Shown here: one piece after another, positions 560 to 18,241 of the stretch
How the letters are laid out: every line of letters starts with the position of its first letter
Numbering within the stretch: the stretch's first letter is position 1
The notes under the pieces: model-generated
The model's input: the letters and a program-made list of their open reading frames with translations, nothing else
Databases searched by the model: none
Told to the model about the DNA's origin: nothing
Translations under genes and position numbers: made by a program
Source of the DNA: an uncultured Deferribacteres bacterium
GTDB taxonomy: Bacteria > Zhuqueibacterota > Zhuqueibacteria > Zhuqueibacterales > Geothermadaptataceae
Direction: 5' to 3'
NCBI GenBank assembly: GCA_964014485.1
Contig: CAXHAT010000160.1
Span: 1-18,336, forward strand
DNA length: 18,336 nucleotides

Positions 560-612
560 GCGACGTTAAAGCAACGTTGCCGTCTTGTCTAAAACTTGAA
601 TTATTCATAAAC

Positions 613-637: not shown

Positions 638-783
638 ATAAATAACAACAGCTTGAGCGCAATTTTCAGGTAACGGTTCAGCGATGATGATTACAAAAAC
701 CAGAATAACAGTCCCCAGAAAAATTGTATCTATTTGACTTACAACGGGACACTAGTGATTTCGAGCTTGAACTAACTTATGAA

Positions 784-1003
784 CTGATGTTACGCGCCCG
801 CCCATTTGGCACGCGTTTAATTTTCATTAGCTCCGCTCTTCAGAGCGGAGGCTTTTGAAGAGAACTGTCTCACCTCTTCCGCCGCGCTGGCGCGGCGGAA
901 GAGAGAAAAATGGGCGTTTTGCGCGTCACCGGGCTGAAGCCCGGCGCTAATGAGACGAGGTTTGCCCAAAACTCAGGATGTGCGCTTCCGCGCGTAACAT
1001 CAG
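784..1003. mobile_element. MITE-like element with perfect terminal inverted repeats and a target duplication
   Basis: TIRs CTGATGTTACGCGC (784-797) and GCGCGTAACATCAG (990-1003) are flanked by direct repeat TTATGAA (777-783, 1004-1010). Equivalent reading: 16-bp TIR (782-1005) with 3-bp ATG duplication. Confidence 0.85.
824..953. repeat. REPIN-like triple-hairpin element, copy 1
   Basis: TCATTAGC...GCTAATGA inverted ends; hairpins at 831-850 (TTCA loop), 874-903 (14-bp perfect arms) and 929-944 (TGAA loop). Confidence 0.85.
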
Positions 1004-1028
1004 TTATGAAAAAACAGGACGGCGTGAA

Positions 1029-1427
1029 ATGAAAGGGATATACTTTTTTGCGGCAAGCGGGGTATTGGCGGTCTTCATAGCATGCAGTACTCCTCCGGTT
1101 GTTGAACCGCCTACTGATTGCACCTATTTTTTTGAGACTGTCATGGACTCGACAATTTCAGCCTCGACTCCGGCAAAAATCGCCGATTTGAAATGCTTCA
1201 GACAATTCTCGCTGTTGGCGAGATTTGAAGGCCAAGCAAATGAATCCTTCGATTTTGAAATTGGGTTCAATCGAACCACCGTTTATCGGGAAACCGTGGA
1301 GCTGAACGCGGCGGGCTGGGCAAACTTTGCCAAAGTCTATCCGGTTTATGCGCCGCGGGTCGGGATTGCCATCTATCATCCGCCGGCGAACACCAAAGTG
1401 AAAATGAGCATTTACGCGGGTCATTAA
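1029..1427 (+). CDS. Putative lipoprotein, unknown function (132 aa)
   Basis: MK, hydrophobic stretch and FIA-C19 lipobox-like site; AGGA about 9 nt upstream. The track start at 978 lies inside the MITE. Confidence 0.75.
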   Translation: MKGIYFFAASGVLAVFIACSTPPVVEPPTDCTYFFETVMDSTISASTPAKIADLKCFRQFSLLARFEGQANESFDFEIGFNRTTVYRETVELNAAGWANFAKVYPVYAPRVGIAIYHPPANTKVKMSIYAGH

Positions 1428-1476
1428 TTCCGGAGCGGGAGATTTGGTTTGATGTGATGAAAGAGGAGAATAAAAA

Positions 1477-1941
1477 ATGAAACGAATACTCGTGTTTATG
1501 TTTTTGGGGCCGCTGTTGATAAGTTGCCAGGATCCCAATGAAAGCGGAGTTCCTGACGGCAAGGATTTCAAAACGTCCACGGTCAATTGGAACGATCCGA
1601 ATCTGGTGGCGAATGTTTATTTCTATGCCGACATCGATCTAAACGAATTTTTCTTTTACTTCGATCATAACGATGATTCCAAGGCGGATTTTCTCATCAA
1701 ATGTAAACGGGATGAATTCAGGGTTCTCAAAGAATCGACGCCGGGCTCCGGGTTGTACGATGTTCTGAAGTATACCGGAACGCCGGCCCTGAGCGCCGGT
1801 CACTATCGCCTCGAATTCCCCCTGGCTGCTCTGGAACTCGAGTTCGATCCCAATGTTTTGACATACTATTGGTTTTATGCAATGGACGGCGGAGACAGAA
1901 TGCCGGATTCGGGCAGGAAAACGTTGGATATGCCCGGATAA
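1477..1941 (+). CDS. Putative lipoprotein, acidic/aromatic beta-rich domain (possibly DOMON/CBM9-like)
   Basis: GAGGAG RBS at 1463-1468; MKR, hydrophobic stretch, LIS-C17 lipobox; motifs FYFDHNDDSKADF, LEFPLAAL and DRMPDSG. Confidence 0.8.
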   Translation: MKRILVFMFLGPLLISCQDPNESGVPDGKDFKTSTVNWNDPNLVANVYFYADIDLNEFFFYFDHNDDSKADFLIKCKRDEFRVLKESTPGSGLYDVLKYTGTPALSAGHYRLEFPLAALELEFDPNVLTYYWFYAMDGGDRMPDSGRKTLDMPG

Positions 1942-1970
1942 GCAAATTGGAAACAGAAAAGAGAAGAACG

Positions 1971-2378
1971 ATGAACCGTGAAAAAGAAGAAGCCCGCGAA
2001 AAACTGGCTATCGCCAAAATCAGTGAGAAGGTCATCCGCTCAATGACTGAGCAGGACCGTGCGGCTAAGGCCAAAACGACAAACTTTTGCGTTGATGCAA
2101 AACTTTTGAAGAAGGGCCGTACGATTCAAGCCCGCCATCAGAAAATTCAAATCCATCGGGAAACATTGATGGTTTTCGCTGATAATGCGCTGTTATTGAA
2201 CTGGCGCCACCCTTGTAGCTACCTTCTCTGCCACGGAAAATGCGAAGAGCTTTATGATGAAGTAAACGCTGAATGCCTTCGCTGTCTGGCTGATCCGCCA
2301 AAGCCTCACAACGCGTTTTATCAGTCTGTTGGGCCAATAAAGAAACATTCAGAAGGGAGAAAGTACTATGCAAACTAA
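1971..2378 (+). pseudogene. Probable decayed N-terminal fragment of a peptidase (C13/legumain-like) gene, or small hypothetical protein
   Basis: VFADNALLLNWRHPCSYLL..ELYDEV resembles the VFADDAPLxNWxHPCRYLLY motif I recall preceding bacterial C13-like catalytic domains. No catalytic domain follows, and the 3' end overlaps the M4 gene start. Confidence 0.45.
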
Positions 2379-5328
2379 CGAATATATAACTCAAATAAAG
2401 CGCACCTTCGCGGCCATTGATCCCATGGTCAAGGTCCGTTGGGATCACGAACTTGATTACCCCGCTGCGATTAGAGGTAAGTTAACACCCCCTAGCGCGG
2501 AGAAACCAGAGAGAATCACCAAACTATTTCTGCGGGCTCACAAAGAAGTGTTTAAGATTAGCCACCCTCAGCAACAACTTAAGCTGGATCGAGTTAAGAC
2601 TGACAGTGTTGGCAACTCACGCTGCTACTTCCATCAGTTTTTTGATGGCCTTCCGGTGTGGGGTGGCTATGTTGCAGTGTTCACAGACTCTGATGGTATT
2701 GTCACTGCATTCGAAGCAAAATATCACATCGAACCCGACATCAAGACGCCCGGTGAGATTAGGGAGGCGCTGACGCACAAAGAACATGAAAAGAAATTAA
2801 TTTCTTCCCAAAAAGCCGTTGCCACAGCCCAAAAGCATAGTGGAGGAAAACAACAAGGTGAGCCGTTCCTACTCATTTATCCATATCAAAATGCCTATTA
2901 TCTAACTTATCATGTGGAAGTGAGCGGCACGGAAGGAAGAAATCCTGCCGATTGGGTTTACTTTATCGACGCCTATTCAGGGCGGATTATTAATCGCTAC
3001 AACACCATCGATTTTGCCGAAATGGTTGATGGCAGTGGCGTCGGCATTAATTTGGATGAAACAGCCGACGGCCCTGAACGCAGTTTTCGCGTTTTTCATG
3101 ACGATGACGACAACTATTATCTCCGCAATGCAGAATACAGCCCTGAAATTAAGGTATATGACATAGCTGGTGGCGGTGAACATGACGGCTTTGCCGATCG
3201 TGACGACCTGGCAATGGATCCCGATGGCCAATGGGATGATTATAGTAATCCCAGTCGAGTGGATAACCAACGACCGGAAGCGGAAGGTTATTGGGCGCTT
3301 CATCGAATCGTCGAATATTTTACCAGAGACAAGGTCGTGAGCGGTAATCACCTTTTCAATCGAAACGGTTGGGATGATAGTGGCGGAAACTGGCGTATGG
3401 TTGTACATTATCGTTCTGGGGCTGGTGTGGACAATATTGAATCCTTCTTCTCACGAAATAGCACTTACGGTAGTCGTGTGTACCATGGGGATGGGGATGG
3501 CACTCATCTCACCTACAAAGCAGTGCTCGACGCAAGCGCTCACGAATGGGTGCATGGAGTTCAATTTTCAGAGATTGCAGCTCCAGTTCCGGGGGCGAAC
3601 GCTGGCTTTGATGTAAGTTTATCAGATCCGTTCGCCATCCAAGAAGCAACAGCTGACGTACTTGCTTGCTGTCTGGATACCGAACGTGGCGGTTGGCACA
3701 TGGGAAAAGAGTTTGAGGAAAGCATTGTTCATTATAGCGGCACATATTCTAGTGCTATAGGCTTAAGGTTGCGCAGCATAGAGAATCCTTCGAAATATAA
3801 TGATTCTTCAGATCCTTCACATATCGTTGCGTTCTCTGATCATATGGAAGCGGCTGCTGACAGTTCTTCCCGAGGGTATGTTACCCCCGGTATGACTCGT
3901 ACAATGAATGGATACTTGAATTGTACAATTCTAAGCCATGCCTTTTATCTGATGGCAATGGGAGGCACGCACCCTACTGGCGTTATCGGCTATGATGAGA
4001 TCCAGGTTATTGGACAGGGGGTTGGCTTTGTTGAAAACATCGTTTATTATTATCTGGTTAATCATGCTGCGGCACAGGATACGCTGCAAAATTTCCGCGA
4101 TGGGATTATTGAGTCTTGCAAGGTTCTCTACCCAAGTGACACTTGTAAGGAATGGTGTGTCAAGCGCGCTTTTGATGCCGTTGGGCTCTATGATGGCAGC
4201 ATTGGCCGAGTAACAAACCTTCCAGAAGGCGTTAATCTCAACATCACTCCATGGGGAGCCAAGAACGGGACAACTCCGTACTGGCAGTCTCCGGATGTCT
4301 ATTGCCTTAACGAATCCGATGTCGTTGTCGAACCAAAGAAGAACCAGACTAATCGACTAATTGCCGTCGTTTGTAATCAAGGAAGTGCGACCGCTAATGG
4401 CACAACGGTGAATTTCTATTTTTCACCTTTCGGCATGGGTTATCGTCATGAGGATTTTAAGTTTATTGGAAGCGACACTATCGACGTGCCGGCAGATGGG
4501 TCCGACGTACAGGCTGAGGTGGAATGGGACCTTACAGATTTAACGGATGATTTCGGCGGAGTGTGGCCTTCTCCTGTGGAGGATTTCGATCATTTCTGTA
4601 TGAGAGTAGAAGTTGTTCACCCAGATGAAGTTTATTCTTGTGACAATCAATGCCAACATAACTTTACCAATGTTGATACTGTGCCGGATGAGGACGGGGA
4701 TGGGGTTTGGAGATTCTTAATTGCTAACCCTTATCCAAGACCAGTATGGGCAATGCTTCACGCACAATCCATGCTTCCGTCTTCGATGAAATATAGCTTG
4801 CGTTACTTTGGAAGCGAACAGATACCAATGGAAGAGATGCCTGAAAAGCCGCTTCATCTGCAAAAAAATGTACACCTGGTGCTGTTGGCGGCTAAACAGA
4901 AGCGAGTTGCGGAGCTAAGAATCTTCATCCCTCGAAAGGAAGCCCTACGGCTGGCGAAAAGTCCGGGGGGACGAGAGAACCTAAAATCAATGTCATTGGC
5001 AATGACAATAGGTGATGCAGAGCTTGGAGGCATTGAAGTGGGTTTCTTCGGGAAAGATTTATGGAACATCGTCAAAAAGAAACCGGAAGTTCCGGTTTTA
5101 CCAGAAAAGATTGGTATTGAGGGCAAGGTCTATAGCCTTTCTTATAATGATAGGGGTGAATTCATTGGCTTCACTCTACGATTAATTGATGGCACCAAGA
5201 GACACTTCGAGAGTATTTCAGAAAGGCTTGAGGAAAGATTAAATGAAGCGAGAGCAGAAAATCGATTCGTAGCAGTTCAGCCTAATGAGCTAGGCCGGCT
5301 TGCCTCAATCGTAATTGATGGAAGATAG
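2368..5328 (+). CDS. M4 (thermolysin-like) zinc metallopeptidase with FTP/PepSY propeptide, Ig/CARDB-like domain and C-terminal extension; no signal peptide
   Basis: FTP-like FHQFFDGLPVWGG; PepSY-like WVYFIDAYSGRII; HEWVH (3541-3555); third ligand QEATAD (E at 3643); HAFYLMAMGG; AFDAVG; WQSPDV-type beta-sandwich; GGGAG RBS at 2355-2359. Confidence 0.9.
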   Translation: MQTNEYITQIKRTFAAIDPMVKVRWDHELDYPAAIRGKLTPPSAEKPERITKLFLRAHKEVFKISHPQQQLKLDRVKTDSVGNSRCYFHQFFDGLPVWGGYVAVFTDSDGIVTAFEAKYHIEPDIKTPGEIREALTHKEHEKKLISSQKAVATAQKHSGGKQQGEPFLLIYPYQNAYYLTYHVEVSGTEGRNPADWVYFIDAYSGRIINRYNTIDFAEMVDGSGVGINLDETADGPERSFRVFHDDDDNYYLRNAEYSPEIKVYDIAGGGEHDGFADRDDLAMDPDGQWDDYSNPSRVDNQRPEAEGYWALHRIVEYFTRDKVVSGNHLFNRNGWDDSGGNWRMVVHYRSGAGVDNIESFFSRNSTYGSRVYHGDGDGTHLTYKAVLDASAHEWVHGVQFSEIAAPVPGANAGFDVSLSDPFAIQEATADVLACCLDTERGGWHMGKEFEESIVHYSGTYSSAIGLRLRSIENPSKYNDSSDPSHIVAFSDHMEAAADSSSRGYVTPGMTRTMNGYLNCTILSHAFYLMAMGGTHPTGVIGYDEIQVIGQGVGFVENIVYYYLVNHAAAQDTLQNFRDGIIESCKVLYPSDTCKEWCVKRAFDAVGLYDGSIGRVTNLPEGVNLNITPWGAKNGTTPYWQSPDVYCLNESDVVVEPKKNQTNRLIAVVCNQGSATANGTTVNFYFSPFGMGYRHEDFKFIGSDTIDVPADGSDVQAEVEWDLTDLTDDFGGVWPSPVEDFDHFCMRVEVVHPDEVYSCDNQCQHNFTNVDTVPDEDGDGVWRFLIANPYPRPVWAMLHAQSMLPSSMKYSLRYFGSEQIPMEEMPEKPLHLQKNVHLVLLAAKQKRVAELRIFIPRKEALRLAKSPGGRENLKSMSLAMTIGDAELGGIEVGFFGKDLWNIVKKKPEVPVLPEKIGIEGKVYSLSYNDRGEFIGFTLRLIDGTKRHFESISERLEERLNEARAENRFVAVQPNELGRLASIVIDGR

Positions 5329-5649
5329 GAAAAAGCGAGATTCATGTCTTTAAACCGACATTCCGCACATGAGTTTGGATGATCCTGAGTGTAGCTGTTC
5401 TGGGTACCCGCCCGCCAGCACGGGTATGGCATTTTGAACGATTGATTGTAAAATGGCGATTTATGAATAATTCAGGCCAATTCATATCGCGCACCATCAT
5501 GTTTTCTGGGCGCGACTTGGCCTGTATTAGTCTTGTCGCTCCTGCGCGGACGCATTCGCGTCAAGGAGGGTGCGAAGCGCCTGCGCCGGAAAGACAAGGC
5601 GTTGTATTCGCGAATTCAGATGTGAAACAACATCGCAGGAGTATTCAAG

Positions 5650-6015
5650 ATGACTTTCCAAACCGAGTATGAATTCACTTTGCCGAAGGGCTTTGTCGAC
5701 GCTGAAGGAAGTTTGCACAGGCAGGGCGTTATGCGCCTGGCCACCGCCGCGGACGAAATTCTGCCGCAAAAAGACCCGCGCGTGCAGCAAAATCCAGCAT
5801 ATCTGGCTGTGATCGTACTTTCGCGGGTCATCGACAAGCTGGGCGAAGTGACCAATATTACGCCGAAAACCATCGAAGGCTTGTTCTCGTCCGATCTGGC
5901 GTTTTTGCAGGATTTCTATCAGCGCATCAATGAAAACGGCCGTTCGGCAATCAAGGCAACGTGCCCAAAATGCGAGCATGAGTTTGAAATGGAACAAAAC
6001 GGCTCGGAGTCATAA
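5650..6015 (+). CDS. eCIS/phage tail assembly chaperone (TAC-like)
   Basis: FQTEYEFTLPKGFVD..G.LHRQGVMRLATAADEILPQKDPRV, IEGLFSSDLAFLQDFYQRIN and terminal CPKC; AGGAG RBS at 5637-5641. Confidence 0.9.
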   Translation: MTFQTEYEFTLPKGFVDAEGSLHRQGVMRLATAADEILPQKDPRVQQNPAYLAVIVLSRVIDKLGEVTNITPKTIEGLFSSDLAFLQDFYQRINENGRSAIKATCPKCEHEFEMEQNGSES

Positions 6016-6191: not shown

Positions 6192-7481
6192 ATGCGTTTT
6201 CTCAACACAAAAAACACAAGTTGGCCGCGAATGAACCGCGACATGCGTTTCAATCGCCTTTTGTCCTCTTCTCGGCGCTTCGTCGATGGATTGGCAGGGC
6301 GGAATCTGGCATTCGGCCAATCCTGTTTTTCGAAAAAAAAGCGACGCAATTTTGCAACACCGGTCGAGCTTGTTTTTCCGTTCTCCGGCGCTCCTCGCAT
6401 GGCCCGAGACCGGCGGGCGGACAAGAAGTTCACAGAGAACAAGTACTTTTTCGATAACCGTGTTTTTGTTTACGCCAACTCTGCCTGGCTTCGACAAAAC
6501 CATTCGTTTCCGGCGAAGCTTGTGGTTCAGCACGAAAAGGCGGTTTCCGCTCCAATTTTCAGTCGCGGTTCGGGAATTATCACGGCTTTGACGGCTTCTC
6601 AGCCAGCCAAATTTACTGCGCCTGACTTGAGTTACAATTTGTCGCCAAATCTTCAAATTTCAACTTTGAGTCTGGCAAGAATGGCGACGGTGAGCACTCT
6701 CGGCGATGAGCCGTTCAAGCATCATCCGCAAGCAGAACGCGAAGCATCGTTTTCGCAATCGTCATCTGGATTATGGGCGCATTTAGAAAGCTCCCCAGCC
6801 CGTCCCCTGATTTTGAATAAGTCGAAAGATTCAGAGACGAGACGGGCAAGCGCACTTTCCGATCAAGTTTCAGCGGGAAAGCGGGCGGCCCGAACGGAAA
6901 CGCGCTTTTTGACGCGCAAAGAGCGGTTTTCCAAAAACGTCAGCGGAAGAATTGGTTTTGCTTACAAAGGTTTTATGCCAGGAATTGATTCCGGCAAACC
7001 CGGACGATTGTTTCCCGCCGCGCCAGTCGGCATGATGCAAAATAGCCGTTCCTTGATTCAGGCAAAATTTAAATTGGCGGAAAAAGTACGAGGACAGCCT
7101 GGAGCAATCGCGAACGACGGTTCTCCATTGCAGTTTTACGCTGGAGCTTCTCACGACCAAGGCCTGGAAATGCACGTTTTTCCCGTCTTCTCGGACAAAG
7201 GCGGACGGGCGGCAACGGCGACTGGCGCACCGGAGTTCGAGTTGTCCTACTTGGATCCGAAAGTATTTTCAACGCCGAGAAAAGAGACAAACGACGTCTC
7301 GCTCGCTCCGGAAATGATTCCGCGAGAAGGTACTCGCGAAACGCAGAAAACGAGAGCGGCGGCAAGCGAAGCCGCTCCCATATTGAGCGCTTTGGACATA
7401 GGTCGGATTACCGACCAGGTTCAGCGTGCAATTGAGCAGAAAATGCGGCTCGAAAACGAACGCAGCGGGCAATGGTATTGA
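6192..7481 (+). CDS. Variable eCIS-associated protein in the tape-measure position
   Basis: 429-aa ORF with basic N-terminus, S/A/P/K/R-rich middle and C-terminal LDIGRITDQVQRAIEQKMRLENERSG motif of the kind I recall upstream of second tube genes in such loci. Confidence 0.65.
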   Translation: MRFLNTKNTSWPRMNRDMRFNRLLSSSRRFVDGLAGRNLAFGQSCFSKKKRRNFATPVELVFPFSGAPRMARDRRADKKFTENKYFFDNRVFVYANSAWLRQNHSFPAKLVVQHEKAVSAPIFSRGSGIITALTASQPAKFTAPDLSYNLSPNLQISTLSLARMATVSTLGDEPFKHHPQAEREASFSQSSSGLWAHLESSPARPLILNKSKDSETRRASALSDQVSAGKRAARTETRFLTRKERFSKNVSGRIGFAYKGFMPGIDSGKPGRLFPAAPVGMMQNSRSLIQAKFKLAEKVRGQPGAIANDGSPLQFYAGASHDQGLEMHVFPVFSDKGGRAATATGAPEFELSYLDPKVFSTPRKETNDVSLAPEMIPREGTRETQKTRAAASEAAPILSALDIGRITDQVQRAIEQKMRLENERSGQWY

Positions 7482-7786: not shown

Positions 7787-7918
7787 AAAATCCCGAGCTT
7801 TTGTTAATCAAAAGTTTACACCCTAGCTTGACGCGTATGCCTCCAAAGGAGCGAATTGCGCGCGCATTGCGCTTAACTTAATGAGATTGACCGCTGAACA
7901 TAATTTCGGAGAATGAAA

Positions 7919-8350
7919 ATGGCGACGGGCGAACGAAATGATCCCTATTTCAACTATAACTTTGCGATTGAAATCAACGGGATCGTGAAAGGATTCGCGG
8001 ACGCTTCCGGCCTGCAATCCGAAGCACAGACGGAAGATTTTCGTGAGGGCGGCGTCAATGAATATGCACGTAAAATCGTCAAGTCCGCCGCTTATCAAAA
8101 TCTGACCTTGAAACGCGGCTTGACGGACGGCGACGATTTATGGCAATGGCACCGCAACACGCTCTCCGGCAAGATCGAGAGGAAAAACCTCAGCATCATT
8201 TTGTTGAACCACACCGGCGACGAGAAATGGCGCTGGAATTTTGTCGAGGCGCTTCCCGTCAAGTGGACCGGCCCGGATTTGAAAGCCGGCGAAAACAGCG
8301 TCGCCTTCGAAACTTTGGAATTCGTTCATCACGGGTTTGACAAAACATAA
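7919..8350 (+). CDS. Second tail tube protein (gp19-like, Afp5-like)
   Basis: DPYFNYNFAIEING, GFADASGL, FREGGVN, LTLKRGL, LPVKWTGPDL, VAFETLEFVH. GGAG at 7908-7911 favours ATG 7919 over 7913. Confidence 0.95.
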   Translation: MATGERNDPYFNYNFAIEINGIVKGFADASGLQSEAQTEDFREGGVNEYARKIVKSAAYQNLTLKRGLTDGDDLWQWHRNTLSGKIERKNLSIILLNHTGDEKWRWNFVEALPVKWTGPDLKAGENSVAFETLEFVHHGFDKT

Positions 8351-8365: not shown

Positions 8366-9001
8366 ATGGAACTCGAAAAAGCGTATATCCAGCCATTGGA
8401 TGCGAAAGGAAACAACAAAGGCGAGCGCATCCTTGCCATGTTCAACCCCGAGCAATACACCGTCGACAAGACAGTGAATTATCAGCGCACCAATTTGCCC
8501 GGCTTGCAAACGCCGATCACGCAATTTGTTTACGGCAACGCGCAGACCCTGAAAATCGATCTCTTTTTCGACGCCTATGACAAAGGCGAGGACGTTCGCA
8601 AGTACACGAAAAAAATCACCAAGCTGCTTGACATCGATTCCGATCTGCACGCTCCGCCGGTGTGCAAATTCATGTGGGGAAAGCTGGAATTCAAGGCGGT
8701 GATCGACAGCGTTTCAGAGAATTTCACCATGTTCCAGAGTTCGGGCGTTCCGGTGCGCTCAAAATTGACGATCAGCTTCACCGAGTACAAAACTTTTGCT
8801 GAGCAATTGCCGCCGAGGCCGTTAGAATCGGCGGATCGCGTCAAGTACCGCAGGATCACGCAAGCGGACAGTTTGTGGAGCCTGGCGGACAAAGCGTACG
8901 GCGATCCCGGCCAATGGCGCGTCATCGCCAGGGCCAACAAAATCACCAATCCGCGATTGCTTGAGCCGGGCGCGGAGTTGACTATTCCGGCTTTGAGGTA
9001 A
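8366..9001 (+). CDS. CIS tube-initiator protein with C-terminal LysM domain (Afp7-like)
   Basis: MFNPEQY, LHAPPVCKFMWG, FTMF..SGVPVRS; LysM DSLWSLADKAYGDPGQWRVIARANKI.NPR.L.PG..LTIP. Confidence 0.93.
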   Translation: MELEKAYIQPLDAKGNNKGERILAMFNPEQYTVDKTVNYQRTNLPGLQTPITQFVYGNAQTLKIDLFFDAYDKGEDVRKYTKKITKLLDIDSDLHAPPVCKFMWGKLEFKAVIDSVSENFTMFQSSGVPVRSKLTISFTEYKTFAEQLPPRPLESADRVKYRRITQADSLWSLADKAYGDPGQWRVIARANKITNPRLLEPGAELTIPALR

Positions 9002-9006
9002 CGGTC

Positions 9007-10068
9007 ATGGAATTCGCCAAGATCGAACAGAAAAATTTGAATTTCTATGCGCCTCGATTCGAGGTCGTCATCGACGGGGAAAACATCATGCACAGCGGCG
9101 TGCAAATCGCCAGCGTAACGTTCACGGATATTCTGCGCGGGCCGGACGATTTTTCGATGACGATCAATGATCCGGACATGGAATGGCTGGAAGCGCCGCT
9201 GCTTCAGCCGGGCAAGGAGGTCGAAATCAGAATGGGCTACGGCGGCAAACTCACTCCCATGGTCGTGGGCGATATTACGGCGTTGGAACCGTCGTTTTCT
9301 TCTTCGGGCCCGCAAAGTATGACGATACGCGGCTTCGATCTGCTGAAAAGGCTGCAAAACGGCTGCGTCTTCAAATCCTGGGACGACACGCAGGATTCCG
9401 ACGTTGCCAGCAAAATTGCCGACAAACATAAATTGAAGACGACGGGCATCGATGAAACGCAGACGATTCATCCAAAAATTATGCAAAACGGAGAGAGCGA
9501 TTACGCGCTTTTGCAGCGCAGGGCGGAAGAAAACGGCTTCGAGATGTTCGTCCATTTACGCACGTTTTATTTCTGCAAGCCCAAGCAGGATAAAACGCCG
9601 CTGACGACGCTGACTTTGGAAAAAACGCTCACCCGATTTACGCCCAGGCTCAACCTTGCCAACAAGCCCAGCCGCGTCTCGGTCAGAGGGTGGAACCCTG
9701 AGCAGCGGCGGGAAATTGTGGGGACGGCGGACGCGGGTCAGGAATCGGCGGTAGAATCGAATCGGCAATCAGCCAGCCAGGCGATTGAAGGCAGGTACGG
9801 AACGGTCGAGCGCTGCATTCGGGAGCCGGTTTACACGCGCGAAGAAGCCTCCCGGCGTGCGCAAGCGGCTCTCGACGCATCCAGCGATCAGTTTTTAACC
9901 GGCGAAGGCGAGTGCATCGGCATACCGGAAATCAGAGCCGGGCGCTACATCAAAATAGAAGGCGTCGGGGCGCGCTTCAGCATGAAATATTACATCGAAC
10001 GCGCAGTCCATAAAATTGACGCAAACGGTTATTCGACAACATTTTCAGTCAAAGGAAACGCATTATGA
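9007..10068 (+). CDS. Phage late control D (GPD) / VgrG hub protein
   Basis: GKEVEIRMGYGG, QNGESDYALLQRRAEENGFE, VSVRGWNP, GECIGIPEIRAG, FSMKYYIERAVHKID. Confidence 0.92.
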   Translation: MEFAKIEQKNLNFYAPRFEVVIDGENIMHSGVQIASVTFTDILRGPDDFSMTINDPDMEWLEAPLLQPGKEVEIRMGYGGKLTPMVVGDITALEPSFSSSGPQSMTIRGFDLLKRLQNGCVFKSWDDTQDSDVASKIADKHKLKTTGIDETQTIHPKIMQNGESDYALLQRRAEENGFEMFVHLRTFYFCKPKQDKTPLTTLTLEKTLTRFTPRLNLANKPSRVSVRGWNPEQRREIVGTADAGQESAVESNRQSASQAIEGRYGTVERCIREPVYTREEASRRAQAALDASSDQFLTGEGECIGIPEIRAGRYIKIEGVGARFSMKYYIERAVHKIDANGYSTTFSVKGNAL

Positions 10069-10721
10069 GTTCGTCTGAGAATGGTTCCAGAGCCGCGCAA
10101 GACGGCAGCAAGATTTCCGGCGTGGTCGTCGGCATTGTGACCGACAATCAAGACCGGCAAGGCATGGCGCGGGTCAAAGTTCGCTTTCCCTGGCGCGACG
10201 ATCAGGACAACAGCTACTGGGCCCGCATCGCTTCGTTGATGGGCGGCAAGGATCGCGGGACTTATTTTCTGCCGGAAGTCGACGACGAAGTGCTCGTTGC
10301 TTTCGACCACGGTGACGTGCATCACCCGTACATTGTCGGCGCGCTGTGGAACGGCGAGGATTCGCCCCCGGAAACGAATTCAGACGGCAAAAATGATATT
10401 CGGAAAATCAAATCGCGCAGCGGTCACGAAATTATTTTCAACGATGACAACGAGACGGGCGGAGAGAAGCTGGAAATCCGCACCAACGCCGGACACAAGA
10501 TTTTGCTCGACGACAGCAGCGGCGGCGAGAAAATTGAGATCACGGACAAATCCGGCAGCAACGCCGTCGCCATCGACTCGGTGCAAAACGCGATTTCCGT
10601 TAAAAGCGGCATGAAAGTGAGCATCGAATCGCAAATGATTGAAATAAAAGCCGGCGGGATGATGAATATCGAAGCCTCCGGCACACTGACGCTCAAAGGC
10701 GCGGTGGTGATGATTAATTGA
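10065..10721 (+). CDS. Baseplate assembly protein V / gp5 OB-fold spike
   Basis: GVVVGIVTDNQD..GMARVKVRFPW, WARI, GTYFLPEVDDEVLVAFDHGD..HPYIVGALWN, beta-helix-like C-terminus; ATGA overlap with the hub gene. Confidence 0.95.
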   Translation: MSSSENGSRAAQDGSKISGVVVGIVTDNQDRQGMARVKVRFPWRDDQDNSYWARIASLMGGKDRGTYFLPEVDDEVLVAFDHGDVHHPYIVGALWNGEDSPPETNSDGKNDIRKIKSRSGHEIIFNDDNETGGEKLEIRTNAGHKILLDDSSGGEKIEITDKSGSNAVAIDSVQNAISVKSGMKVSIESQMIEIKAGGMMNIEASGTLTLKGAVVMIN

Positions 10722-10737: not shown

Positions 10738-11034
10738 ATGCCTTCAGCAGCAAGAATCGGCGACCCAACCAGCCACGGAACGCCTCTCGCTCCAGGGCCG
10801 GGCAGCGCGAACGTCTTGATCGGCGGCGCCCCGGCCTGGCGCGTCGGGTCGGATTTTCATGCCTGCCCGCTGGTCACTCCTGTGCCGTCGCCGCACGTCG
10901 GCGGCGTTGTTGGCGTGGGAAGCGTGACCGTGCTGATCAACGGCTTGCCCGCGGCGCGGCAGGGAGACATGATTATTGAAGCCGGACCGCCCAATTCCAT
11001 CGCGATGGGCTGTCCGACGGTGCAAATCGGTTGA
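10738..11034 (+). CDS. PAAR spike-tip protein
   Basis: SAARIGD, PAWRVG and PAARQGD repeats with His/Cys ligands; AGGAG RBS. Confidence 0.95.
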   Translation: MPSAARIGDPTSHGTPLAPGPGSANVLIGGAPAWRVGSDFHACPLVTPVPSPHVGGVVGVGSVTVLINGLPAARQGDMIIEAGPPNSIAMGCPTVQIG

Positions 11035-11043: not shown

Positions 11044-11451
11044 ATGGCAAAAGAATTTCTCGGCACAGGCTGGAAATATCCGGTGGGCTTGCAGGCGGAC
11101 GGACGGATCACCCTCTCCAGGTATGAAGAAGATATCCGGGAAGCCATTTTGATCATTCTGGGAACCGCAAAAGGAGAGCGCGTGATGCGCCCGGATTTCG
11201 GCTGCGGCATTCACGATCTCGTCTTCGCGACCGTCAATGTCGCAACGATCGGTCAGGTCGAATCGACTGTACGGGAAGCTTTGACGGAATTTGAGCCGCG
11301 CATCGAACTCATCGAGATCAAGGCTTCTCGCGATGACGCAAGCAACGGCAAGCTCAACGTCAGCATCGACTATCGCGTGCGCGCGACCAACAATGAATTC
11401 AATCTGGTTTATCCGTTTTACCTGGACGAAACGAGCAGCGCGGCGATTTGA
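11044..11451 (+). CDS. GPW/gp25-family baseplate protein (Afp9-like)
   Basis: FLGTGWKYP, ILGTAKGERVMRPDFGCGI, FEPRI, NLVYPFYL. Confidence 0.95.
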   Translation: MAKEFLGTGWKYPVGLQADGRITLSRYEEDIREAILIILGTAKGERVMRPDFGCGIHDLVFATVNVATIGQVESTVREALTEFEPRIELIEIKASRDDASNGKLNVSIDYRVRATNNEFNLVYPFYLDETSSAAI

Positions 11452-11487: not shown

Positions 11488-11715
11488 TTTTTTGTCATAC
11501 TCGACAATGCATTCGAATACAAGTTTTTTGGCAAGATTTTTAGAAACGCAGAGACGGAAAGGACGCTGAGAAGCGCAGAAAAAATTTCATTTTAAATTCA
11601 ATATTGGATGGTTTCAAAGTACAAAAACATACAAAAGGCTCTGCGAAGCTCTCCGATCTCCGCGTCTCTGCGTTAAGTCTCAAAATTGAGACTGTGCTGC
11701 CTCGTTCCGGCTTGT
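11488..11715 (+). repeat. ~230-bp repeat, copy A (ACGCAGAGACG-type REPIN core)
   Basis: Inverted arms at ~11544-11584 and 11639-11678; homologous along its length to the reverse complement of 16088-16334. Confidence 0.85.
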
Positions 11716-11783: not shown

Positions 11784-14700
11784 ATGTCAGTCTCTACGCC
11801 AAAAATAGATCAACGAACGATTGAAAAAATTCTCAAGCGGATAAAAGCCGCCGCACCGTTCTACGTGCCGGAGTGGAACATCTCCGAAAACACGGGGCCC
11901 GGCGCCGCCTTGATCGAAATATATGCGCGCCTGCTGGAAGCCGTGATTTTCCGGCTCAACCAAACGCCGGACAAAAACTTCACCGCTTTTCTGGATATGC
12001 TCGGCGTGAAGCTGCTCCCCGCGCAAGCAGCCAAAGTTCCGCTCACGTTTAAACTTTCCAAAGGCACGGAAAAGGAAATTCTCATCCCGGCGCGAACCCG
12101 CGTCGCCGCCGACAAAACGGACGAGCATGATGAATTGCCTTTTGAAAGCGAAAAGAACCTGCTGGCGATTCCCAGCCCGCTCAAAGCCGTCATCAGCGCC
12201 GATCCGGTGAACGACGCCGTCTATCTGCCCCCGCCCGATTTTTTGAGCGAAGAATTACAAGACCCGCCCCGCCTTTCCTACACAATCGTTGCGTCGGCCG
12301 CCGCAGGGACGAAGAGCCTGCAATTGGATCACGTGACGGAATTAAAAGAGCGGGACATTCTCAAAATCGGCGGAAACGGACAGGCGGAATATGTGATCAT
12401 CGCTTCGCTGTCCGGCGCAATCGTCCATCTGACCGACAAGCTTTCACAGGCTCACGGCGCCAGAACCCCGATTAAAAAGATTGCTCATTTCTGCCTGTGC
12501 GAGGGCAAAAACAAGCAGGAGCACGGCTTGTATCTGGGACATGAAGACCTTTTCAATATTGAGAGCGCGGCCAACTTTGTTTTGAACCTGGAGCTTTGGG
12601 GCGAGACACCATCCGACGAGCTGCGGGAGCTTGTCTGGCAATATTGGGGCGAGGTCAAGGACAAGAAAGGCGAAGATTGGCATGACTTCGATACGCTGGA
12701 CGAGACGCAAGACCTGACCCAAAGCGGCGAAGTTAAATTGCACAAAACACTGGACGGCGAAATCAAGGAAAAAGAAATCAACGGGATCAAGAGCCGTTGG
12801 ATTCGGTGCCTGGTCAAAGAAAAGCTGCCGCCCGCTGGACAGCGCCGTCTGCCAATTCTGGACAAGGTCAAATTCAAAGTCAATTCTTCCGAAACAAAGC
12901 TGCCGCCCGATCTTGCCTTCAACAACGACGTCCCGCTGGACGTGACCAAACCTTTCTCGCCTTTTGGGACGGAGCCGCGCATTTTCGACCGTTTCGCCAT
13001 CGCCAACAAAGAAGCGTTTTCCAAAAAAGATGCGAAGGTTACTCTGGATGTTGATGTAGACGCAAGGGGCGTTCTTTCTACGCCTAGCGCCGTGTCGTTT
13101 GACAACAAAACAAAAGTGTTTGCCAGAGGCGATGACGGCAGATTGATCGAAATCGAAATTGACGCAGACGAGAATATCAACGCAGTCTGGATCGATCATG
13201 GATATCCCGCAAGCGCGCAGATAGCCACTGATTCAGCCCCATCTGCGATTGAGTACAGAGCCAACAACATTGATCAAATATCTGTATTTGTAAGATTAGA
13301 AAACGGGTGTCTGGCGGAAAGAAAGTATAACGGTTTTCAATGGAGTTGGTCTGATCATAACACTCCCATAATCGAAAGCGATCATCAGGAGGACGGAATT
13401 ATTTTTGATCCAATCGCAGTCTGTCAAAAAGCGCACACCGGGCAAAACAATAGAATGCTGTCTGTCTTTGTCGTTGGGTCGAGCGGCCGCCTCTTCGAGC
13501 GCTGCCGCGACCTGCTCAAATCATCCTACTTTTGGAAGAATCACGGTTTAATAAAAGATACCCCGATCGCCGGTTCACCCTACGCCGACTGTCACCCTCA
13601 TGAAACAGCAGGCGAAACGCAAAGAGTAAAGGTTTTTGCCGTTGGCGAAAGCGGGCAATTGCTTGAATTGGACTCCGAAATGGGTTCGGAAGCAAGCGAC
13701 GAGCACAGCGTTTACGAACCGCCCGACGAATCGATAAAGCCCGGCTCTCGACCGTTCGCGCAGAATTACTTTTATCACAATGACGAAAATGTATATGCAT
13801 ACGTCTTTGTTCAGGGATCGGACGGCGAGTTGTGGAAAAAAGACGCCAACCCTGCTAAAATTGGCGGCGAGCCTGACTGGGAATCTTTGGGCAAGCCGAA
13901 CGGAAATCATTCGGTGGCTTCTAATCCGCACGGCCCAAAATCACGGGAGCACGAGAATATTTTCGTTACGGACAATGAAGGATTTCTTTGGGAATGGCGG
14001 TCGAATGACTGGAAACTTCACGAAGCGCCGAAGAATACGAATCTTGCATTTTCTCCCTGTTTTCTGAGAGTCGGCGATGATCTATATGTTTTTTCCGCTG
14101 ACAAAAATAACGCCCTGGCGGAATTGAAAATTGCAAATTTCAGGCTGCCGGGACGATACAAGCGGTGGAGAGAGCATCGCGAGTTCAATCCGGTGCTTTC
14201 GTGGGAATACTGGAACGCCAAAGGATGGAAAATCCTCAAGGGCCTGCAAGATACGACGGATCATTTACTCAAAAACGGCAAAATCACCTTCACGCTGCCG
14301 GAGGACGTCGCGGAGACGGAAATCGCCGGACAAAAGAACTTCTGGATTCGAGCAAGACTGGTCGGCGGCGACTACGGCAGGGAATCCTTCGCTTATGCTC
14401 TGGGAACGACGCAGGATGGAGATCAGTTTACATCTTCCAAATCCGGCATTCGCCCGCCGCTTGTCAACGAACTGACCATCAGCTATGAACTCGAAAAACA
14501 ACAATTCCCGCAAATATGCTTGACGCACAACAATCTGGCTTTTGTTGATCACACCGACGCGTGCAGGTTGGACGGCAAGCATTTTCACCCCTTCGAGAGG
14601 TTGCGGGACGACGAAGAATCTCTCTACCTGGGCTTTGAAAAATCCTTCACAGGCGGGCCGGTCAAAATATTCTTCAACGCCGAAGAACTCCCCTGGACGA

Positions 14701-16133
14701 AAGATCAAAAGCCGAAATTCAACTGGACGTACAGCCAAAAAAACAATTGGGGCGAGCTGTCGCATCTCGACAACACGGAAGCTTTGATCAGACGCGGAAG
14801 CGTGGAGTTGTCGGTTCCTGAAGATTTTTCACTGCAAAGCAGATTTGGCGACAATCTTTACTGGATTAGGGGCGCACTGCTTGAGGGAAGCTACGCCGAA
14901 AGCGCATGTCCGACGCTCAAAGGCGTTTACCCGAACACGACCTGGGGATGGCAGACCGAGACGGTCGAGAATGAAATCATCGGCTCGAGCAACGGCGAGA
15001 AAAACCAGACTTTTTCTCTGCTAAAATCCCCCGTACAGGAAGGCGAAATGCTGCGGATTCGCGAGTTTTTGCCCGAAGATGAGAAGCGGGCGCTGATTGC
15101 CGAGCATGGCAAGGAATCCGTGTTTGAGAAAAAAGACGAGAACGGCAAAACCCTCGAAACCTGGGTGTTATGGCAAGAGAAATCTGACTTTTTTCACTCA
15201 GCAGCAACCGAGCGGCACTACGTCCTGGATCGCGCTTCGGGCGTGATTCAATTTGGCGACGGCGAGAAGGGCATGATTCCGCCGCGCGGCGAAAACAACA
15301 TCAAGGCCTTTGCCTATCAATGCGGCGGCGGCGCTTCCGGGAACGTGAAAGCCGGAGAAATCAAGACCGTCAAATCGGCTGTGCCCGGGGTCGACAAAGT
15401 GATTAACCCCGTCGCGGCGGATGGCGGCGCGGACACGGCGACGGTTGCCGAAATGCACAAAATCGGCCCGGCGCGCATCAGCCATCGCGACCGTGCGATC
15501 ACAGCGGAAGACTTTGAATGGCTCGCCAAAGCAGCTTCCCGAAAAGTGGTCAAAGCGCGATGTCTTGCAAACACGAACAACGAATTGCAGCCCGCGCGCG
15601 GATGGGTCACGGTGATTATCGTTCCTGATTCGCGGGAGGACAAGCCGTCGCCGTCTTTGGAACTGCGCAGGATTGTGCGCCAAAAATTGGAAGCGCAATG
15701 CGCCAACACGCTCTCCGCCGCTGAAAATCTACATATTTGCGAGCCTTCGTACGCGGAAATCAGCGTGTCGGCGGAGGTGTTTGTGACCTCCATCGACGTT
15801 GTGACGCAAGTTGAACGCGAAATCAACAAAAAACTGCGCGCCTTTTTCCACCCCTTGACCGGCGGGCCGGAAGGCAAGGGCTGGGATTTTGGTCGGGATG
15901 CCGCGGCCTCGGACGTTTACGCCTTGCTCGAAAGCGTGCAGGGCGTGGATCACGCGGAAAACTTGCGTTTGGATCGAAATGGCGCTGCGAACAGAGACGT
16001 CATCGCCGTCCAAAGAAATTCTCTCGTTGCCAACGGCGATCATAAGATCAAGCTGCGCGTCGTCGAGGACGAAAGATTCGCAAGAACACGAGCCGGAACA
16101 AATCAGGAGCGGTCATTCAATCTCGTAACTTAA
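11784..16133 (+). CDS. Large baseplate J/gp47-like wedge protein (Afp11/12-like, 1449 aa) with inserted beta-propeller
   Basis: N-terminal PKIDQRT...PFYVPEW...RLNQTPDKNFTAFLDMLGV; C-terminal FGDGEKGMIPP, HRDRAITAEDFEWLA, FFHPLTGGPEGKGWDFGR. GGGAG RBS at 11770-11774 supports ATG 11784. Confidence 0.92.
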   Translation: MSVSTPKIDQRTIEKILKRIKAAAPFYVPEWNISENTGPGAALIEIYARLLEAVIFRLNQTPDKNFTAFLDMLGVKLLPAQAAKVPLTFKLSKGTEKEILIPARTRVAADKTDEHDELPFESEKNLLAIPSPLKAVISADPVNDAVYLPPPDFLSEELQDPPRLSYTIVASAAAGTKSLQLDHVTELKERDILKIGGNGQAEYVIIASLSGAIVHLTDKLSQAHGARTPIKKIAHFCLCEGKNKQEHGLYLGHEDLFNIESAANFVLNLELWGETPSDELRELVWQYWGEVKDKKGEDWHDFDTLDETQDLTQSGEVKLHKTLDGEIKEKEINGIKSRWIRCLVKEKLPPAGQRRLPILDKVKFKVNSSETKLPPDLAFNNDVPLDVTKPFSPFGTEPRIFDRFAIANKEAFSKKDAKVTLDVDVDARGVLSTPSAVSFDNKTKVFARGDDGRLIEIEIDADENINAVWIDHGYPASAQIATDSAPSAIEYRANNIDQISVFVRLENGCLAERKYNGFQWSWSDHNTPIIESDHQEDGIIFDPIAVCQKAHTGQNNRMLSVFVVGSSGRLFERCRDLLKSSYFWKNHGLIKDTPIAGSPYADCHPHETAGETQRVKVFAVGESGQLLELDSEMGSEASDEHSVYEPPDESIKPGSRPFAQNYFYHNDENVYAYVFVQGSDGELWKKDANPAKIGGEPDWESLGKPNGNHSVASNPHGPKSREHENIFVTDNEGFLWEWRSNDWKLHEAPKNTNLAFSPCFLRVGDDLYVFSADKNNALAELKIANFRLPGRYKRWREHREFNPVLSWEYWNAKGWKILKGLQDTTDHLLKNGKITFTLPEDVAETEIAGQKNFWIRARLVGGDYGRESFAYALGTTQDGDQFTSSKSGIRPPLVNELTISYELEKQQFPQICLTHNNLAFVDHTDACRLDGKHFHPFERLRDDEESLYLGFEKSFTGGPVKIFFNAEELPWTKDQKPKFNWTYSQKNNWGELSHLDNTEALIRRGSVELSVPEDFSLQSRFGDNLYWIRGALLEGSYAESACPTLKGVYPNTTWGWQTETVENEIIGSSNGEKNQTFSLLKSPVQEGEMLRIREFLPEDEKRALIAEHGKESVFEKKDENGKTLETWVLWQEKSDFFHSAATERHYVLDRASGVIQFGDGEKGMIPPRGENNIKAFAYQCGGGASGNVKAGEIKTVKSAVPGVDKVINPVAADGGADTATVAEMHKIGPARISHRDRAITAEDFEWLAKAASRKVVKARCLANTNNELQPARGWVTVIIVPDSREDKPSPSLELRRIVRQKLEAQCANTLSAAENLHICEPSYAEISVSAEVFVTSIDVVTQVEREINKKLRAFFHPLTGGPEGKGWDFGRDAAASDVYALLESVQGVDHAENLRLDRNGAANRDVIAVQRNSLVANGDHKIKLRVVEDERFARTRAGTNQERSFNLVT

Positions 16134-16334
16134 CGCAGAGACGCAAAGATCGGAGAGCTTCGCAGAGTTTTTTCAAAACAATCGTTCTATTTATCATCAT
16201 ACTTGGGAAATGGTTAATTTTGAACTAAGAATTAAGTTTTCTCCGCGAATCTCGGCGCTCTTTCCGTCTCTGCGTTTTTGAAGAATCTTGGTAAAAGCTT
16301 CTGCTCGATTGCTTTTGCCAAGTATCGCAGAAAA
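16088..16334 (-). repeat. ~250-bp repeat, copy B (inverted relative to copy A)
   Basis: 16128-16167 matches the reverse complement of 11639-11678 at 38/40; flanks and spacer also align. Contains the stop codon of the wedge gene. Confidence 0.85.
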
Positions 16335-16372: not shown

Positions 16373-18241
16373 ATGAGTTTAGCAATTCCTGATTTAGACG
16401 ATAAAACGTTTGAAGAGCTTGTTGAAGAAGCGCGGTCGCTGATCCCGCGCTACGCTCCCGAATGGACGGATCACAATCTTCACGACCCGGGCATGACTTT
16501 CATCGACCTTTTTGCCTGGCTGGCCGAAATGCAAATTTACCAGGTGAACCAGGTGAGCGACGCGCATTATCTCAGCTTTCTCAAAATGCTCGGTCTGTCG
16601 CCGCTTCCCTCCCGCCCCGCCAGAGCGGAAATCGCTTTTGACCCGGTAACAAACGAAAAATTTGTGGCCGCCGAGACGCAGGTTGTCGCTGATCTTGGCG
16701 AGGAGCGGATCGTTTTTCGAACCCAGGAAAGCTCGACGCTCGTCCCAGGCGTGCTGCGGGAAATTTTGACGGTTCAAAATTTAGCAACCATTGATCAAAC
16801 GCAGGCAAACGCACAGAACGGAGTGCATTTCTCCGCTTTTGGAGAAAATCCGGGCGAAGGCGCGCAATTACGGCTGGGCCTGGAGAAACGGCTCCCGCCG
16901 GGCGTGAAAATTCGCCTCGGTTTCCTTTTGGCTTCAGAAGAATCGACGCCGATTGCGGGCGATGATTTGGAGATCATTCCCTCCGTTGATCTTGTTTGGG
17001 AATATTTTGAGCGCGGCGGCTGGCGACCCTTGCGGCAAGAAGCCGACTCGACGATTGCGCTCACCCAAAGCGGCGGCCTCAGCCTTTGGACGCCGCAAAG
17101 CATGGCGCCCAAAGACGGGCTTTATTGGCTGAGACTTCGCATCACCAAAGGCCGCTACGAATATCCGCCGCGCATCGAGAAAATCGCGCTCAACGTTTTG
17201 CCGGTCGTGCAAATCGAAACGATAAAAAACGAAGACCTGGGCGAAGGAGAAAATTGCCCCGAGCAAGCTGTTTTTCTGCGCAAAACTCCGATAATCGCAG
17301 GCAGTTTAACTTTGCAAGCTCAGCAAGACGACGCATGGCTCGACTGGCGGGAAGTGGACGATTTCGAAAAATCCGGGCCGCGCGACCGCCACTACGTTTT
17401 TGACGCATCGAAAGGAATGATCATTTTGGGCAACGGCTTGAACGGACGCCTTCCGGGCAAAAATCAAAAAATCCGCGCCGCAGCCTACGAAACCACGCTG
17501 GGAGCGCGCGGCAATCTGCCCGGCACGCTCGAATGGATCATTCAAACGCCGAGATTTGAAGAAATTTGCGGCGAAAATCTTGGCGAAATCAGCGGCGGGC
17601 GGAACGCGGAAACTTTGGAGCAGGCAAAAATCAGAGCGCGGGAAGAACTCCAGCAACGCATTCGCGCGATCACTTCGAAAGATTTTGAAGAACTTGCGCT
17701 TTCCACGCCAGGACTGCGCATCGCCAGAGCCGCCGCCGTTCCAAATTACCATCCTGACTTTCCGTGTCTCAACATGCCGGGCGCGGTGACGGTGGTCGTT
17801 GTGCCGCAGGTCAGAGAAAACGTCGTTAGCCCCCGCCCCGGCGACGGCTTTCTGCAAACCGTGCGGCGGCGCCTGGAAGAGCGCAGGCTGGTTACAACCG
17901 CCGTCCATGTCGTTGCACCAATTTATGTCCAAATTTCTGTGAAATGCAGCGTGCATGTGAAAAAAAAGAGCAGTCCTCGCGAAGTCAAAAATCGGGTCGA
18001 AGAGGCGCTACTCGAGTTCTTAAATCCTATGCCGAACGAAAAAGAAAAGAAAAAAGGCTGGCCTTTTGGACGCGCCGTTTTTCCATCGGAAATTTACGAA
18101 ACGATTGACGCGGTTGAGGGCGTGGACTACGTGACCGGCGTGCTGCTCAGCGCCGGCGGACGGGAGACGAATCGGCCAATAAAAATTCCGCCAATCGCGC
18201 TGGTTTATTCCGGCAAGCACGAGGTGGAAGCAATTTATTAA
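16373..18241 (+). CDS. Baseplate J/gp47-like wedge protein (622 aa)
   Basis: PDLDDKTFEELVEEARSLIPRYAPEWTDHNLHDPGMTFIDLFAWL, RAITSKDFEELA, GWPFGRAVFPSEIY; GGAG upstream. Confidence 0.95.
   Translation: MSLAIPDLDDKTFEELVEEARSLIPRYAPEWTDHNLHDPGMTFIDLFAWLAEMQIYQVNQVSDAHYLSFLKMLGLSPLPSRPARAEIAFDPVTNEKFVAAETQVVADLGEERIVFRTQESSTLVPGVLREILTVQNLATIDQTQANAQNGVHFSAFGENPGEGAQLRLGLEKRLPPGVKIRLGFLLASEESTPIAGDDLEIIPSVDLVWEYFERGGWRPLRQEADSTIALTQSGGLSLWTPQSMAPKDGLYWLRLRITKGRYEYPPRIEKIALNVLPVVQIETIKNEDLGEGENCPEQAVFLRKTPIIAGSLTLQAQQDDAWLDWREVDDFEKSGPRDRHYVFDASKGMIILGNGLNGRLPGKNQKIRAAAYETTLGARGNLPGTLEWIIQTPRFEEICGENLGEISGGRNAETLEQAKIRAREELQQRIRAITSKDFEELALSTPGLRIARAAAVPNYHPDFPCLNMPGAVTVVVVPQVRENVVSPRPGDGFLQTVRRRLEERRLVTTAVHVVAPIYVQISVKCSVHVKKKSSPREVKNRVEEALLEFLNPMPNEKEKKKGWPFGRAVFPSEIYETIDAVEGVDYVTGVLLSAGGRETNRPIKIPPIALVYSGKHEVEAIY

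Follow-up and report, generated by a model that had tools for sequence, protein, structure and literature searches.

Work on retargeting extracellular contractile injection systems (eCIS) has so far centred on the tail fibres. Studies of AlgoCIS suggested that a second receptor may be bound, and firing gated, by an insertion in the baseplate wedge protein Cis11. In that system, domain IV of Alg11 (residues 278–643) is described as protruding from domain III and as holding two carbohydrate-binding modules (CBMs), CBM1 and CBM2, with six copies forming a spike cage (PMC8894135). A role in attachment has been proposed for the domain (PMC8894135), as has secondary receptor binding that gates firing (10.1101/2025.10.08.681156), and the insertion site is called an evolutionary hotspot (PMC8894135, PMC8894136, 10.1101/2025.10.08.681156). 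Related cages occur in Cis11 of the Anabaena tCIS, in MAC and in T6SSiv. Here we analyse an 18,336-nucleotide stretch (the window), which is one whole contig (C160, CAXHAT010000160.1) of an uncultured Deferribacteres bacterium (GCA_964014485.1; 8.4 Mb, 465 contigs, GC 0.50) and whose Pfam hits delineate a contractile-injection-system gene cluster. The long Cis11/Afp11-type wedge protein of this cluster contains a complete seven-bladed β-propeller that belongs, in diverged form, to the PLL/PHL lectins (Pfam Beta-prop_PLL).

Like Alg11 with its 366-residue domain IV, this wedge carries a large extra domain (about 370 residues) with a lectin-like or carbohydrate-binding fold in the middle of a Cis11-type chain, and the rest of its extension matches Cis11 chains by fold. 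The inserted domains themselves differ: the one described here is a PLL-type propeller and not a CBM sandwich, whereas Alg11 domain IV consists of two CBM β-sandwiches. The lineage also differs from that of AlgoCIS in having two Baseplate_J paralogues and a protein that combines NHL and Tail_P2_I domains. We regard the AlgoCIS Cis11 spike cage as the closest precedent; the present insert embodies the same idea, but the fold and the eCIS lineage are different ones, and the two slots may correspond. Siphophages offer another case, since their 'evolved' Dit and Tal carry carbohydrate-binding modules in a loop of a structural baseplate protein for auxiliary host adhesion; the host protein, the fold (β-sandwich CBM) and the machine all differ from those of the wedge analysed here. 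Propeller lectin folds are also used by eCIS in the eBAP3 fibres, presumably for glycan recognition (Nat Commun 2026, PMC12923769). There, however, the propellers belong to separate trimeric fibre proteins downstream of Tail_P2_I, not to the wedge (PMC12923769). For this fibre catalogue, Afp11 appears to matter only in phylogeny, as a marker, and as the adaptor of fibres, and a literature search for a propeller or lectin inside Afp11 or Cis11 returned only the same catalogue, whose supplements may list such wedges. The initial annotation of the window held that characterised eCIS use separate fibres for targeting, a statement that is incomplete in that Alg11 already has two carbohydrate-binding modules in its wedge insertion.

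The two wedge genes, the insert and its landmarks are as follows.

11784..16133, + strand: long wedge protein, Cis11/Afp11-like, 1449 amino acids; Pfam Baseplate_J at residues 1163–1356, E = 3.9e-14
12963..12995, + strand: conserved host motif 5′ of the slot, FGTEPRIFDRF, residues 394–404; F394, P398 and F404 invariant in alignment A2
13068..14183, + strand: seven-bladed PLL-like β-propeller insert, residues 429–800 (AlphaFold2, Foldseek, VIA, profile)
13113..13145, + strand: repeat core 1, KVFARGDDGRL, residues 444–454
13281..13313, + strand: repeat core 2, SVFVRLENGCL, residues 500–510
13461..13493, + strand: repeat core 3, SVFVVGSSGRL, residues 560–570; pocket-equivalent residues S/F/H (S566, F571, H587)
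13629..13661, + strand: repeat core 4, KVFAVGESGQL, residues 616–626
13800..13832, + strand: repeat core 5, YVFVQGSDGEL, residues 673–683; stacking Trp kept (W684)
13956..13988, + strand: repeat core 6, NIFVTDNEGFL, residues 725–735; stacking Trp kept (W736), His746
14085..14117, + strand: repeat core 7, YVFSADKNNAL, residues 768–778
14202..14216, + strand: conserved host motif 3′ of the slot, WEYWN, residues 807–811; W807, E808 and W810 invariant in alignment A2
16373..18241, + strand: short Baseplate_J paralogue, 622 amino acids; phmmer E = 1.1e-74 over residues 2–620 to Streptomyces CIS Cis11 (9gtp_1K)

All seven repeat cores quoted in the initial annotation were found, beginning at residues 444, 500, 560, 616, 673, 725 and 768; the interval 13068–14180 corresponds to residues 429–799, as numbered there, and baseplate sequence does resume at NPVLSWEYWN (residues 802–811). 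An AlphaFold2 model of the insert, built with 31 orthologues, has a mean predicted local distance difference test score (pLDDT) of 85.7, a predicted template-modelling (TM) score of 0.86 and 27 strands in seven groups. A second model, covering residues 100–950 and built with 69 orthologues (pLDDT 86.6), again contains the propeller, at residues 432–800. Together with the profile matches given below, these models place the repeat pattern well outside what chance would produce. The propeller is placed between neighbouring strands of a single wedge β domain, with KVTLDVDV before it and VLSWEYWN after it.

The closest solved folds are those of PLL and PHL. In a Foldseek search of the PDB, the top 22 rows were all PLL, PLL2–5 or PHL (E = 5e-13 to 2e-11; TM score by target 0.72–0.77; 16–19% identity), and the six-bladed fucose lectins AAL, AFL and RSL came next at E = 4e-8 or weaker. 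VIA-align ranked PLL4 (8q82_A) first, with Z = 35.7, a root-mean-square deviation (rmsd) of 2.3 over 305 aligned residues and 21% identity; other PLL/PHL entries reached Z = 32.9–34.4, BP39L 32.2 and CV39L 30.1, and WD40 proteins at most 28.2 with 7–10% identity. A profile made from 15 inserts, the one in the window and 14 from metagenome loci (alignment A3), matched the PDB chains of PLL4 (E = 7.2e-22), PLL2 (2.9e-20), PHL (7.2e-20), PLL5 (8.6e-20), PLL3 (7.7e-19) and PLL (2.5e-17), each in 3–4 separate stretches, followed by designed 'Cake' propellers (2e-6) and RSL (about 0.01). The relation to PLL shows only through profiles and folds, not through the single sequence, which also had no PHROG match. 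A Pfam match of the insert to PI-PLC-X (E = 0.16) was dismissed as chance. Free-standing relatives of 300–500 residues carry the Pfam domains DUF346 and Fungal_lectin. The initial annotation, which had called a PLL/PHL-type seven-bladed propeller from the sequence alone, was right.

The insert and the PLL/PHL lectins share the seven-bladed architecture with W-motif repeats of ~45–60 residues, as well as the signature VF.(R)G.D..L followed by a conserved Trp and then S.P. Their similarity amounts to Z = 33–36, rmsd 2.2–2.8, 19–21% identity and profile E-values of 7e-22 to 4e-17. In contrast to PLL/PHL, which are free oligomeric lectins of 35–40 kDa, the insert is internal to a structural protein, and its loops are longer.

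The protein that holds the propeller is a baseplate wedge, as had been proposed, and more exactly the long subunit of the Cis11/Afp11 type in a contractile injection system. It has a C-terminal Baseplate_J domain, lies in the order gp25, wedge, second wedge gene within the cluster, and possesses a multi-domain β extension like those of solved Cis11, Alg11 and Pvc11. In Foldseek, the non-propeller part of the residue 100–950 model matched Cis11 of the Anabaena tCIS (7b5h_AH, E = 1.2e-11, 935 columns), and likewise Alg11 of AlgoCIS (7aeb_G, E = 1.7e-9, 902 columns) and Pvc11 (9qgl_A, E = 4.2e-8, 832 columns); the global rmsd to solved Cis11 chains is large because the domains are differently oriented. 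The short paralogue aligns to the long wedge at wedge residues 1–138, 912–1089 and 1125–1423, and by this alignment the long wedge reads as a paralogue of the short one with a 770-residue extension. Cis11 of Streptomyces is reported to be present in two copies per wedge (PMC12237407). The start codon of the long gene is the ATG at 11784, which is preferred over an upstream TTG because GGGAG lies 9–14 nucleotides 5′ of it and because orthologues start at the equivalent point.

To place the insert among its relatives, we searched with the C-terminal 640 residues of the wedge, which returned 886 proteins, and analysed the best 120 (47–62% identical). A propeller hidden Markov model matches 87 of these 120 orthologues and leaves 33 without a match. 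In 31 of the 33, the slot span, taken from FG..PR.YD.F to WEYWN, is only 46–57 residues, and such short orthologues read straight through the slot (...SKKGA.I.L......DTS.GL...P.LSWEYWNGKGW), with a 12-residue loop in place of the propeller; among those carriers in which the two flanking motifs could be located, the span is 389–1420 residues. The slot state of the other two (P0111 and P0129) is uncertain, as they show neither a propeller match nor the flanking motifs. The propeller is not universal, yet it is the majority state in the lineage and not an oddity. The precomputed Pfam label PF26607 (Beta-prop_PLL) is attached to 39 of the 87 propeller-bearing orthologues and to 0 of the 33 propeller-less ones, with no entry listed for the window protein; the accession was not found in the literature. 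Where sources name them, the carriers include Methanoperedens, Methanosarcina (P0059), Deltaproteobacteria and Omnitrophica. A scan of genome contigs returned only five distant Pyrinomonadaceae loci, all propeller-less.

Long wedge forms of 1600–2492 residues combine the propeller with additional sequence. One of them is encoded in the same genome, at a second, complete eCIS locus (contig C12, 13018–20133; L084): its 2371-residue wedge has the propeller at residues 443–813, followed by about 900 further residues before host sequence resumes. Additional CIS loci of this genome lie on contigs C3 and C49. In four related loci (L007, L029, L044 and L014) an extra domain of ~70 residues stands right after the seventh blade (GLVR.EG.A.GG...I.....AS....YNGM.IKI...; alignment A3, columns ~620–710), and in another (L028) a blade loop contains a SASNAVV tandem repeat.

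In an unrooted FastTree phylogeny of the last 600 residues, empty-slot rows fall mostly into one clade (30 of the clade's 31 rows, support 99) that lies within the carriers, and at least five changes of slot state are required overall. Loss of the propeller in the empty-slot clade is likely. The insert diverges faster than its host, being 26–40% identical to its orthologues, as against 47–62% for the C-terminal 640 residues.

How the slot changes can be seen directly in two metagenomic wedge proteins that are sisters in this tree, P0004 (1450 residues, with propeller) and P0053 (1274 residues, whose slot is empty and which has another extra domain upstream of it). Over residues 1–250 the two agree at 245 of 250 positions and over residues 1001–1450 at 443 of 450, but over residues ~270–1000 only 18–32 of every 50 alignable positions (about 36–64%) are identical. 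This clear mosaic of recombination shows that the central part of the wedge gene is exchanged as a unit. Because the central part is an exchangeable cassette, related systems differ in slot state: empty, filled by the propeller, or filled by the propeller together with more domains.

For the family, then, the description of the propeller as a swapped-in module holds. The initial annotation had in addition pointed to low GC as a sign of swapping in this genome, and its hand counts (22/60 at 13261–13320 and 36/60 at 12901–12960) are exact. The insert has a GC of 0.485, as against 0.534 and 0.543 for its two flanks within the gene; GC at third codon positions (GC3) is 0.51 in the insert and 0.65 in both flanks (z about 4.3), the drop coinciding with the insert borders. 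These values would fit a recent foreign acquisition peculiar to this genome. However, the GC3 drop recurs in all 22 propeller-bearing genes tested (z 1.1–6.1), whatever their overall GC3 (about 0.2–0.68) and including the second copy of this genome on C12, and the propeller is found in most of the orthologues compared, so that we consider such an acquisition highly improbable. Low GC3 thus characterises the domain itself and does not point to a recent transfer in this genome; perhaps the domain evolves faster or is under weaker selection on codons.

Copies of a palindromic element, some 170–200 nucleotides long and with arms such as AACGCAGAGACG...CGTCTCTGCGTT, stand on either side of the wedge gene (window 11506–11689 and 16117–16315) and explain why the gaps next to it, of 332 and 239 nucleotides, are unusual and AT-rich. 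We rejected these repeats as cassette borders: blastn places the element on 51 of the genome's contigs, in many cases at their ends, and it is a dispersed repeat resembling miniature inverted-repeat transposable elements or repetitive extragenic palindromic sequences.

We then asked what the propeller may bind. The fucose pocket of PHL is formed by Thr194, Trp199 and Trp214 together with the backbone of Gly171 and Val172 (PMC5584973). In the insert-profile alignment, the counterpart of Thr194 directly follows 'RG', that of Trp199 directly follows the conserved Leu, and that of Trp214 stands three positions past the conserved Trp; the window has D/I/H, E/A/H, S/F/H, E/L/Y, S/W/L, N/W/H and K/A/H at these positions in repeats 1–7.

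Several observations weigh against a sugar-binding module. Unlike in PHL, the fucose triad is complete in none of the seven window repeats, and the stacking Trp is present in two of the seven. The Trp214 equivalent is His, Tyr or Leu throughout the family (60 carriers), and in the insert-profile alignment the Arg and Glu of the PHL galactose site are not retained. The window insert is more degenerate than the family consensus, to which an orthologue such as P0010 is closer: its repeat 4, with E/L/Y, departs from that consensus, and the window protein stands on a long branch (0.56) in the tree. Apart from the chance PI-PLC-X match, the insert as a single sequence matches no Pfam family and no PDB chain at E-values up to 10. 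In addition, the closest solved relative of the short paralogue belongs to the cytoplasmic, fibre-less Streptomyces CIS, and for this reason extracellular action is itself something that we infer.

The orthologues conserve a pattern at these positions. Across the 60 carriers, the stacking position (Trp199 equivalent) is Tyr or His in repeats 3 (59/60) and 4 (51/60) and Trp in repeats 5 and 6 (53/60 each), and it is occupied by an aliphatic residue (Ile, Val, Met or Leu) in repeats 1, 2 and 7, which adjoin the host domain. The Trp214 equivalent is His in repeats 1 (54), 2 (36), 3 (47) and 6 (49), Tyr in repeats 4 and 7, and Leu in repeat 5, and Ser or Thr is retained at the Thr194 equivalent in repeats 1, 3, 5 and 6. 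Repeats 3 and 6 in orthologues thereby conserve Ser/Thr, Tyr/Trp and His together. Judged from the alignment, the family keeps a modified pocket signature, consisting of a hydroxyl, an aromatic and a His, on the blades farthest from the insertion point, which suggests ligand pockets on the exposed side. The conserved aromatics could also be purely structural, and this would account for the signature equally well. As worded in the initial annotation, the glycan-binding module is overstated: the canonical pockets are missing from the window, and a modified signature is conserved in its orthologues. Glycan binding and target recognition by the propeller would be a reasonable expectation.

The same data can be read in terms of a passive structural module, a six-copy cage or collar round the spike that shields the PAAR tip and cargo or stabilises the pre-firing baseplate and has no ligand. 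The Cis11 cage domains of AlgoCIS, tCIS, MAC and T6SSiv are described as structural, the function of that of tCIS being stated as unknown (PMC8894135, PMC8894136); a cage of this kind would also agree with the lack of the fucose triad in every repeat and of the propeller in one whole clade. It agrees less well with the conservation of Trp/Tyr and His/Tyr at lectin-pocket positions in the distal repeats 3–6 only, with the fact that all of the nearest relatives, whether by fold or by profile, are lectins that bind sugars, and with the combination of fast divergence and cassette swapping, both typical of recognition parts. We consider a ligand-free cage unlikely, if the most plausible of the rivals to a binding role.

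The explanation that we put forward, with confidence that is about evenly balanced, is that the wedge-embedded PLL-like propeller serves to bind a ligand on the target surface. The copy number follows from solved Cis11 homologues, which have six chains per entry, and from the hexamer formed by Cis11–Cis12 heterodimers (PMC8894135, PMC8894136); by analogy, the roughly six copies per baseplate suggested in the initial annotation are a fair estimate. With one propeller per wedge, six would hang from the baseplate near the spike, as Alg11 domain IV does. Each would bind this ligand, which is most likely a glycan, in inter-blade pockets of repeats 3–6, and would provide a second contact once the fibres have docked, possibly gating firing. 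A broader version of this explanation is more doubtful, and we offer it only tentatively: in an eCIS lineage that is widespread in bacteria of anoxic sediments and in methane-cycling archaea, the six propellers might constitute a glycan-sensing ring that acts as a second receptor checkpoint for firing, the wedge cassette might be swapped by recombination to retarget the machine, and the wedge might set the target range as much as the fibres do.

The genes downstream of the wedge bear on the relation between propeller and fibres. The window closes with the short wedge gene. Related loci, whether they carry the propeller or lack it, continue with genes for a ~700-residue protein with an NHL propeller and Tail_P2_I, then two proteins of ~330–450 residues without a Pfam match, then eCIS_core (DUF4157) proteins. 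The same downstream set is present on contig C244 of this genome (L083), which probably continues the window locus. The two unassigned proteins share N-terminal parts, and among the Atlas models closest to the first is a cluster that has collagen and lactonase domains. They fit the Tail_P2_I-associated fibres as described in PMC12923769, a lead and not proof. The system is probably not fibre-less, and the propeller would add to the fibres, not replace them; a fibre gene, which the initial annotation had proposed to look for, is represented by these candidates in related loci and on C244.

A further reading makes the propeller a protein-docking platform that holds short fibres or another baseplate part, or that ties the machine to a membrane protein of the cell producing it. 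Propellers often serve as scaffolds for binding proteins, Z-scores of WD40 proteins against the insert go up to 28, and the short paralogue is related to Streptomyces Cis11. The homology of the insert, however, is to lectins and not to WD40 proteins, and propeller-bearing and propeller-less loci share the downstream set (Tail_P2_I–NHL, two fibre-like genes, eCIS_core); since the same genes follow with or without the propeller, no partner gene co-varies with it. We rate such a platform as improbable. A link between the propeller and the length of the second wedge gene was also considered and found to be inconsistent (622–862 residues in carriers, 621–630 in the closest propeller-less loci, 622 in the window).

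The Tail_P2_I protein of C244 (147–2255) and of related loci is fused to an N-terminal NHL-type six-bladed propeller. The fusion is present whether or not the wedge has a PLL-like propeller, so some baseplates would show two kinds of propeller.

Relative to the AlgoCIS precedent, what is new here is a different lectin fold in the mid-protein slot of a Cis11-type wedge, present in a majority of the best 120 orthologues, and the exchange of the cassette holding this slot between otherwise near-identical genes. The notion of the wedge as a receptor-binding hotspot thereby gains a natural comparative test, with slots that are empty, hold the propeller, or hold the propeller and more, and the PLL lectin family gains a structural context far from Photorhabdus. 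If the propeller binds glycans, it would offer a compact site, six per baseplate, for engineering the target range, as well as a hint at the surface sugars seen by environmental injection systems.

The remaining genes of the cluster in the window are listed below.

122–559 and 7913–8350: tube (Pfam)
8366–9001: LysM tube initiator (Pfam)
9007–10068, + strand: gpD-like hub, Phage_GPD (Pfam)
10065–10721, + strand: gp5-OB spike (Pfam)
10738..11034, + strand: PAAR spike tip (Pfam PAAR_motif, E = 5.5e-18)
11044..11451, + strand: gp25-like sheath initiator (Pfam GPW_gp25, E = 4e-28)

Rfam gave no match at gathering scores over the whole window. A 429-residue open reading frame (ORF) at 6192–7481, located within the structural portion of the cluster, matches neither a Pfam family nor a PHROG. 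Between the first tube gene and the next conserved gene (560–5650) lie three small ORFs without a Pfam match and a gene for a 986-residue protein (2368–5328, GC 0.465) with FTP, PepSY and thermolysin (M4) domains. This stretch is missing from a related locus (L047), and a shorter M4 peptidase is found among the eCIS_core genes of another (L006). The 986-residue M4 protein is possibly a cargo or accessory protease.

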